In this document: piece after piece, positions 49,695 through 49,927 of the stretch | How positions within the stretch are numbered: the stretch's first letter is position 1 | Layout: each line of letters begins with the position of its first letter | Assembly (NCBI GenBank): GCA_951406725.2 | Contig: OX597815.1 | Location: 213,404,001-213,468,000, forward strand | DNA from: Octopus vulgaris | Taxonomy: Eukaryota | DNA length: 64,000 nt | Direction of reading: 5' to 3' | Notes under the pieces: generated by a model | Seen by the model: the letters and a program-made list of their open reading frames with translations, nothing else | What the model was told of the DNA's origin: nothing | Database searches by the model: none | Translations under genes and position numbers: made by a program

Positions 49695-49927
49695 ACACAA
49701 AAATAAGCAACAAGAATGACTCCGATAATTTGGTACAATTGTTTCGCACTACAACATTTTATTAAAAGTTGTAAGTATTACAGCAGATTTAAGATGCTGA
49801 GTGCTCTTCAGCCAATTATTTTTGATTATAATCACCCCGCAAATTTTTATGGGTAACACCATACAAAATTCTGGTGCATCTAAATTAAGTATCATATTCA
49901 TTTGAATCTAAATTGTTGCTGAACTTA
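49695..49927 (-). mobile_element. ~230-bp non-coding hammerhead-bearing element between two (TA)n arrays (solo pLTR or retrozyme-like)
   Basis: (TA)n at 49590-49693 and 49927-49981 flank unique sequence that contains the ribozyme. Confidence 0.7.
49725..49819 (-). ncRNA. Type I hammerhead ribozyme with a branched, extended stem II
   Basis: ATAATTGG-CTGAAGA-GCACT-(49 nt, two hairpins)-AGTGC-GAAA-CAATTG-TA-CCAAATTAT; all core nucleotides intact, GUA triplet, palindromic stem III. Confidence 0.85.

Follow-up and report, generated by a model that had tools for sequence, protein, structure and literature searches.

The 64 kb window, by which the whole stretch of 64,000 nt of Octopus vulgaris DNA analyzed is meant, carries on its minus strand a hammerhead motif whose stem II closes around an unusually long insert, and the locus raises the question of what kind of element bears this motif and what the insert folds into. 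A preliminary description had proposed an intact hammerhead with a stem II that opens into a three-way junction. The reading favored here, with somewhat more confidence than doubt, is that of a type I hammerhead, likely the 3′ ribozyme of a Hydra-clade Penelope-like element (PLE), with a domain II of 59 nt that models as a rod and with a GUA site that would be cut mostly in a palindrome-paired dimer. The features on which the analysis draws are collected in Table 1.

Table 1. Coordinates of the hammerhead motif, its surrounding island and the neighboring element (positions in the window)
Feature	Coordinates	Strand	Basis or remark
Hammerhead motif, core through cut site	49811-49734	minus	strict descriptor match
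Stem I 5′ arm, AUAAUUGG	49812..49819	minus	truncated by inversion junction
Catalytic core CUGAAGA	49811-49805	minus	sequence and aligned family contigs
Stem II, GCACU / AGUGC	49804-49800 / 49750-49746	minus	5 bp around 49 nt
Domain II, 59 nt (base GCACU/AGUGC plus four arms)	49746..49804	minus	predicted folds
Domain II arms A; B; C; D	49799-49794; 49785-49779; 49773-49767; 49757-49750		
Core GAAA	49745-49742	minus	sequence and aligned family contigs
Palindromic stem III, ACAAUUGU	49742-49735	minus	sequence; variant in family, ACGAUCGU
GUA triplet	49736-49734 (feature span 49733..49736)	minus	cut predicted at 49734/49733
Stem I 3′ arm, CCAAAUUAU	49725..49733	minus	sequence
Repeat island of 232 bp between (TA)n tracts	49694..49925	both pieces	loose ends, opposite-strand joints
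Inverted piece bearing the hammerhead	49698..49819	minus	sequence, loose ends, inverted duplicate
Forward piece, probable last ~110 nt of element	49816..49925	plus	ends GAACTT, then (TA)n
Left (TA)n tract	49590..49693		probable insertion target
Right (TA)n tract	49926..49981		probable 3′ end of element
Decayed Hydra-clade PLE, different family	54391..57206	minus	RT, EN-side motifs, (TA)n flanks
Second hammerhead, 86-nt domain II, palindrome CGAUCG	54610-54506	minus	3′ end of the 54391-57206 element

Read along the minus strand from 49819 to 49725, the motif follows the order AUAAUUGG, CUGAAGA, GCACU with 49 nt and AGUGC, GAAA, CAAUUG, UA and CCAAAUUAU. The perfect core (CUGAAGA, GAAA and GUA), the 5-bp stem II enclosing 49 nt and the palindromic stem III of the preliminary description are all borne out. 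The core agrees with the type I rule (CUGANGA / GAAA / UH), and the predicted pairing includes three helices around the core, an open stem I and the pairs G10.1-C11.1 and A15.1-U16.1, with stem I having 4 bp or, alternatively, 8 bp with one bulged A. Judged by its sequence, the motif is a type I hammerhead with an otherwise textbook core, stem I, stem II and palindrome, for which cleavage is predicted. The motif sits in an inverted fragment from which the distal part of stem I has been lost, a point that had been overlooked.

Scanning the 64 kb with a descriptor that allows inserts of up to 300 nt returned this motif as the sole strict match. A chance origin is ruled out by 40 block-shuffled windows, which gave 0.025 matches per shuffle and never a palindromic stem III. 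Rfam at the gathering score gave 0 hammerhead matches in the whole window, and the hammerhead family was absent from the 31 weak matches obtained at E ≤ 10 between 49400 and 50200; the earlier prediction that this form would evade standard descriptors is supported, and the long insert is the probable reason for the miss. The motif is real, and the standard library overlooks it.

The island in which it lies contains no ORF. Both of its joints are marked by a 9-nt inverted duplicate (100% identity; 49698-49706 and 49816-49824), the second copy of which forms the first 9 nt of the forward piece. Loose ends in the aligned contigs were found at 49816, 49820 and 49914; beyond 49819 other copies continue differently, and elsewhere the stretch that comes after the hammerhead stands in front of the plus-strand sequence that starts at 49816-49820. 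Together, the loose ends and the inverted duplicate suggest a 5′-truncated and 5′-inverted copy of the 3′ end of an element, and the island is likely such a retroposed copy. The loose ends would also place the cut site about 135 nt before the terminal (TA)n. The inversion junction clips stem I, leaving this copy without its distal part, and no contact between loop I and loop II was identified. The loose-end letters, read by eye, would add four pairs with the downstream GGAG in intact copies. The upstream loose-end motif had 0 matches in the window. Likewise, no second copy of the family was found within the 64 kb and no tandem joint was seen, although short contigs could hide one, and the head-to-tail repeats of 170-400 nt characteristic of retrozymes are absent at the island.

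Contigs of the family were aligned at a likeness of at least 80% in four of 24 listed runs, with three organism labels; none of the listed runs is on record as RNA, and the fourth of those aligned (X5) is possibly RNA. The runs gave 1663, 818, 1154 and 53 contigs, figures of contig depth rather than of copy number, and with so many variant contigs the sequence is therefore a dispersed repeat family. Core variants did not exceed the 2% listing level in the three largest runs, and no variant letters were listed from 49788 to 49817 (core and 5′ arms) or in GAAA in any of the four runs. Variation at U16.1 (49735) amounted to at most 0.25% in three runs and to one contig in the fourth. Domain II is variable at 10 listed places, a contrast to the core that is suggestive only, since alignment at ≥80% favors sameness. 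The variants are unphased. In the aligned contigs the majority letter at 49783 is C22U (70-90%) and that at 49767 is U38A (70-79%). One X5 contig (record 25) folds back at 49769/49782, the inner B:C hairpin, with 10 letters changed from the window sequence in one arm and none in the other.

The 3′ arm of stem II varies more than its partner, with G58A in 47-64% and C59U in 32-47% of the depth and no partner change listed in the 5′ arm. Two contigs carry a GUGCU arm as a loose end, and the Hydra-like relatives described below have GUGCU/AGUAC and G-U at the base of stem II. The unpartnered changes imply either that stem II is weakened in many copies or that a divergent subfamily was left unaligned there, and the latter may be their cause. 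The DNA pattern of the family gave 0 matches in metagenome contigs.

The family probably represents the 3′ terminus of a Penelope-like retrotransposon of the Hydra clade. No RT/EN ORF linked to it was seen, so membership is inferred from the layout and the form of the motif. Hydra-clade elements are reported to insert at (TA)n and to carry a 3′ hammerhead, with an inverted 5′-truncated copy in one family (Craig et al., 2021; PMC8557442), and insertion at (TA)n is found at the present island as well. The estimate of about 135 nt between the cut site and (TA)n compares with 31-117 nt at 27 sites in Hydra-like loci; those distances fall into two groups, 31-59 and 92-117 nt. A blastn comparison of the island with 92 Hydra-like loci gave no match, Pfam on 25 of the 77 window ORFs detected neither RT nor GIY-YIG, and no Hydra RT was confirmed among 14 and 28 candidates in viral contigs.

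A decayed Hydra-clade element of a different family lies 4.6 kb from the island and shows the same layout, including an inverted 5′ piece (57020-57206). Its frames contain an RT with GLYRDD and the C-terminal motifs CNCRNPSTC, CKLC and CRH, which correspond to the clade marks CxCX5C, CxxC and CxH (PMC8557442); the combination of RT and C-terminal GIY-YIG is found in this family. The frames also match the published RT of Hydra-1_Obim, the family itself being distinct from Hydra-1_Obim; the assignment to the clade is supported by tblastn and by hhalign at 99.7%, and the nearest two proteins are named from Octopus (64-65% identity). In the hammerhead at its 3′ end, position U16.1 is occupied by G, and in the inverted copy by U. 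When stem II is forced, 98.5% of the sampled folds show a branched domain II, with a poorly defined second hairpin; this domain contains a perfect 12-bp A/U hairpin at whose apex the inverted 5′ piece breaks. On these models this hammerhead may be a better candidate for a three-way junction than the motif at 49811-49734.

Other repeats were noted in the window. A further island (53384-53886) lies between (TA)n tracts and bears a direct repeat of 26 nt at its ends, with a related end at 35838-35969. A decayed hammerhead-like core within it, on the minus strand (53673 to ~53620) and with a 38-nt spacer in which two small hairpins are possible, was rejected, having no clean hammerhead parse. In a relaxed scan, hammerhead-like cores with ordinary domain II lengths appeared on the plus strand at 58373-58399, 60415-60448 and 60820-60853 and are candidates only. 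A Tc1/mariner-type transposase remnant (16938-18147, minus strand) was recognized by DDE_3 (E 2.7e-15) and HTH matches. Several copies of what we take to be a SINE-like repeat stand beside microsatellites at 50010-50180 (minus strand), 52050-52200 and 52460-52860.

For the length of domain II, relatives were collected with an alignment of 25 of 122 proteins, which yielded 77 metagenome loci (from the best 80 of 538) and 15 genome-contig loci; these 92 Hydra-like loci are the best-scoring and mostly intact ones and not a random sample. A Hydra-type hammerhead was present in 64 of them. The 64 domain IIs are all distinct and measure 10-31 nt, with single, unbranched hairpins in each of the ten longest, and the palindromic stretches measure 6-10 nt. 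A looser scan detected a hammerhead in 59 of the 92 loci, against 1 match across three shuffled sets. Two long matches of that scan (53 and 64 nt) were dropped, as the stricter count did not recover them (L080 parses with 31 nt, and L038 is without the GAAAC stem III). Fifteen Hydra-like loci occur in contigs filed as bacterial genomes and are probably host contamination.

At 59 nt, domain II is thus about twice as long as the longest among the 64 relatives found here, which supports the contrast drawn earlier with the short stem II loops of typical PLE hammerheads, and loop 2 measures 3-10 nt in 26 published Hydra rows (PMC8557442). A literature search, mainly of papers outside subscription, found no account of cephalopod or Hydra hammerheads whose natural domain II is long or branched. 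The length is outside the range seen here, but long spacers have been predicted elsewhere and the idea is not wholly new.

The four arms of domain II can be paired in two ways, as a rod (A:D with B:C) or as a branched junction (A:B with C:D). The complementary arms of the two hairpins claimed earlier are indeed present (CAGCA/UGCUG, 49799-49795 / 49785-49781; ACAAC/GUUGU, 49772-49768 / 49755-49751), but the fold that they would form competes with a rod made from the same arms. When the 49-nt insert was shuffled 5000 times, two adjacent 5-bp Watson-Crick hairpins arose in 241 cases, so the two-hairpin pattern alone is only modestly above chance. With Turner 2004 parameters, this copy is predicted to be ~93% rod and ~6-7% branched (5.9% of samples), and the 15 junction pairs together have a probability of 0.012. 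When four parameter sets were combined with two dangle models (8 settings), the gap between rod and junction ran from +1.7 to -2.5 kcal/mol, with the junction favored in five settings and tying or winning under Turner 1999, Andronescu 2007 and Langdon 2018. A gap of this span amounts to a tie for this copy.

The majority letters of the family lead to a clearer prediction. With C22U and U38A together (unphased), the rod is better by 2.7-5.4 kcal/mol in all 8 settings, the branched fold falls to 0.1%, and the stability of domain II is matched by 0 of 500 shuffles. G36 with A38 also favors the rod, by 3.0-5.4 kcal/mol, and C22 with A38 alone favors the junction by 1.3-4.9 kcal/mol, again as an unphased combination. 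Pairing is kept or restored in both folds by C22U, A36G, C37U and U38A, U51A (24-71%) breaks one pair in each, and among the ten variants none breaks one model while sparing the other. Domain II is accordingly modeled mostly as one long interrupted hairpin and not as a branched junction, and the three-way junction of the preliminary description, tied for this copy and disfavored throughout with the majority letters, is not established.

Dimer cleavage through the palindrome had also been suggested, and two results are consistent with it. Matched changes at 49740/49737 were present in 11/9, 24/11, 27/19 and 57/58% in the four runs (unphased), and the paired change turns AAUU into GAUC with the palindrome preserved. 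In the loop of a monomer nothing would tie 49740 to 49737, so the matched changes fit cleavage as a dimer; two CpG transitions would yield the same change. The active fold of the monomer is predicted at -14.3 kcal/mol and a misfold in which the stem I 5′ arm pairs with the palindrome at -17.7 kcal/mol (a gap of 3.4 kcal/mol), and the palindrome duplex at -6.4 kcal/mol. The short palindromic helix III of dimer-type PLE hammerheads is found in both the window sequence and its family variant. Within the window, no second tandem hammerhead of this family was found for the same transcript. Cleavage as a dimer at low rates has been reported for PLE hammerheads (PMC4209133), as also in a review (PMC6765202), and those of metazoans cleave weakly (PMC4209133). 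A mussel retrozyme repeat cleaves co-transcriptionally at about 0.1 per min (PMC7229834), so the monomer, too, may have some activity. For the Poseidon element of the anole, cleavage is described as protein-assisted and as dispensable for insertion in vitro (PMC11167929).

In the favored mechanism, the element would be transcribed and two hammerheads, in tandem copies or in two RNAs, would pair through the 8-nt palindromes and so complete helix III. The core would then cut at the predicted site, perhaps with the help of an element protein as in the anole. Domain II would represent an overgrown helix II, derived from the 9-11 bp stems of the relatives through internal duplication, which is suggested by arms B and D being the same 7 nt in the majority letters. 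The genomic copy itself would be a passive fragment, truncated on the 5′ side and inverted in the course of reverse transcription, in which the core was kept and the distal stem I lost.

Other explanations have to be weighed against this one. A stable three-way junction, providing a tertiary contact or a site for protein binding, is doubtful, with part of the modeling in its favor: both hairpins are perfect 5-bp Watson-Crick helices in this copy and preferred in 5/8 energy settings, C:D becomes a perfect 10-bp helix with the majority letters, and the neighboring Hydra hammerhead is predicted to be predominantly branched once stem II is forced. The majority U22, however, weakens A:B (G-C to G-U) while perfecting B:C, with the rod ahead in 8/8 settings, and two hairpins also appear by shuffling, while the ten longest domain IIs of the 64 relatives are unbranched. 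As B equals D and A resembles C, domain II could also flip between rod and Y as a bistable switch that gates cleavage or acts in reverse transcription. The near-tie in this copy, the four changes suiting both folds and the fold-back at the B:C hairpin agree with such a switch, which is nevertheless quite improbable, since duplication of any hairpin arm allows two folds with no need for selection, the majority letters leave hardly any of the branched fold and the fold-back is a single contig. The base of stem II is kept in both folds, so that no effect of switching on the core is predicted. Also unlikely is the broader proposal that octopus Hydra elements have repeatedly enlarged domain II into structured modules, of 59 nt here and of a branched 86 nt in the neighbor, and that selection has made of it in the present family a rod/Y switch or an arm for protein docking, which would permit dimer cleavage or direct reverse transcription.

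The insert might instead be a tolerated neutral expansion in a family whose ribozyme is inactive or dispensable, for which the chances appear small. The unpartnered 3′-arm changes in about half of the depth fit this explanation, as do the absence of distal stem I here, the weak cleavage of metazoan PLE hammerheads (PMC4209133) and the insertion in vitro of the anole element without hammerhead cleavage (PMC11167929). It is opposed by the constant core beside 10 variable places in domain II, a difference to which the ≥80% alignment contributes by its bias toward sameness, and by a majority-letter domain II far more stable than its shuffles. That the element is not Hydra, but a non-autonomous retrozyme or a member of another PLE clade (Neptune, Naiad), is very unlikely. 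No attached ORF was seen, Naiads likewise insert at (TA)n, and those of Octopus and Euprymna carry the label 'HHR_half_core' (PMC8557442); on the other side, there is no tandem repeat, and the motif agrees with Hydra hammerheads in its inverted layout, its location at the 3′ end and its form, GAAAC-palindrome-GUH. Four short motifs from this family and the neighboring one gave 0 matches in the Naiad/Chlamys/Hydra consensus supplement, where line breaks could hide matches.

The favored type I hammerhead with a rod-like domain II shares with the described Hydra-clade hammerheads (Craig et al., 2021; PMC8557442) a type I core near the 3′ end, the GAAAC-palindrome-GUH arrangement, (TA)n targets, inverted truncated copies and, through Hydra-1_Obim, a cephalopod host. 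It differs from them in the length of domain II (59 nt, and 86 nt in the neighbor), the hammerhead of Hydra-1_Obim being a different and short one. With the minimal and variant PLE hammerheads (Cervera and de la Pena, 2014; PMC4209133) it has in common the palindromic helix III, the dimer model, G10.1-C11.1, a long helix II (7-8 bp in that report) and the occurrence mostly as solo copies from truncated elements. Unlike those, it has no extra nucleotide between A9 and G10.1, a helix III of 8 nt rather than none and a far longer domain II. Perreault (2011) also described pseudoknots, a stem II that is short and a stem III that is palindromic.

Long spacers have been published for PLE-X1_sMoe and PLE-X1_sTam of spike-moss (loops of about 35 and 29 nt) and for eight Naiad 'HHR_half_core' cases (35-50 nt between the core halves), all of which differ from the present motif in being flagged as non-canonical sequence predictions in other clades (PMC8557442). 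Poseidon of Anolis (PAc) is likewise a PLE hammerhead with a protein-assisted model but overlaps the ORF start and belongs to a different clade (PMC11167929). The metazoan non-LTR retrozymes resemble the motif as invertebrate type I hammerheads with a 2-bp stem III plus tetraloop; they are tandem repeats of 170-400 nt with circular RNAs, whereas the motif stands alone, in an inverted fragment set in (TA)n (PMC7229834).

That Penelope-like elements carry terminal hammerheads is already known, and the extension consists of a constant core with a domain II about twice as long as in the longest relative found here. The giant squid genome paper gives a count of 235 Rfam hammerheads. Together with the second family in the window, whose domain II is longer still, the present one suggests that cephalopod hammerheads are undercounted by standard searches and that the long-spacer 'half core' cases in other clades merit structure-aware re-examination. 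The family lends itself, as a natural example, to testing if domain II serves as a spacer only or as a module for docking or switching. Should domain II be no more than a tolerated long hairpin, the known motif would be extended modestly; if it is a selected switch or docking arm, the family would represent a natural class of regulated hammerheads that escapes current descriptors.

Two repetitions of sequence were observed within the element. Words resembling UGUUG/UGCUG recur four times on the probable sense strand, twice in domain II (49750-49756 and 49779-49785), once after the cut site (49706-49713) and once at the 3′ end (49913-49920). In addition, GCAUCU(U)AAAU is found in domain II and again in the 3′ tail.
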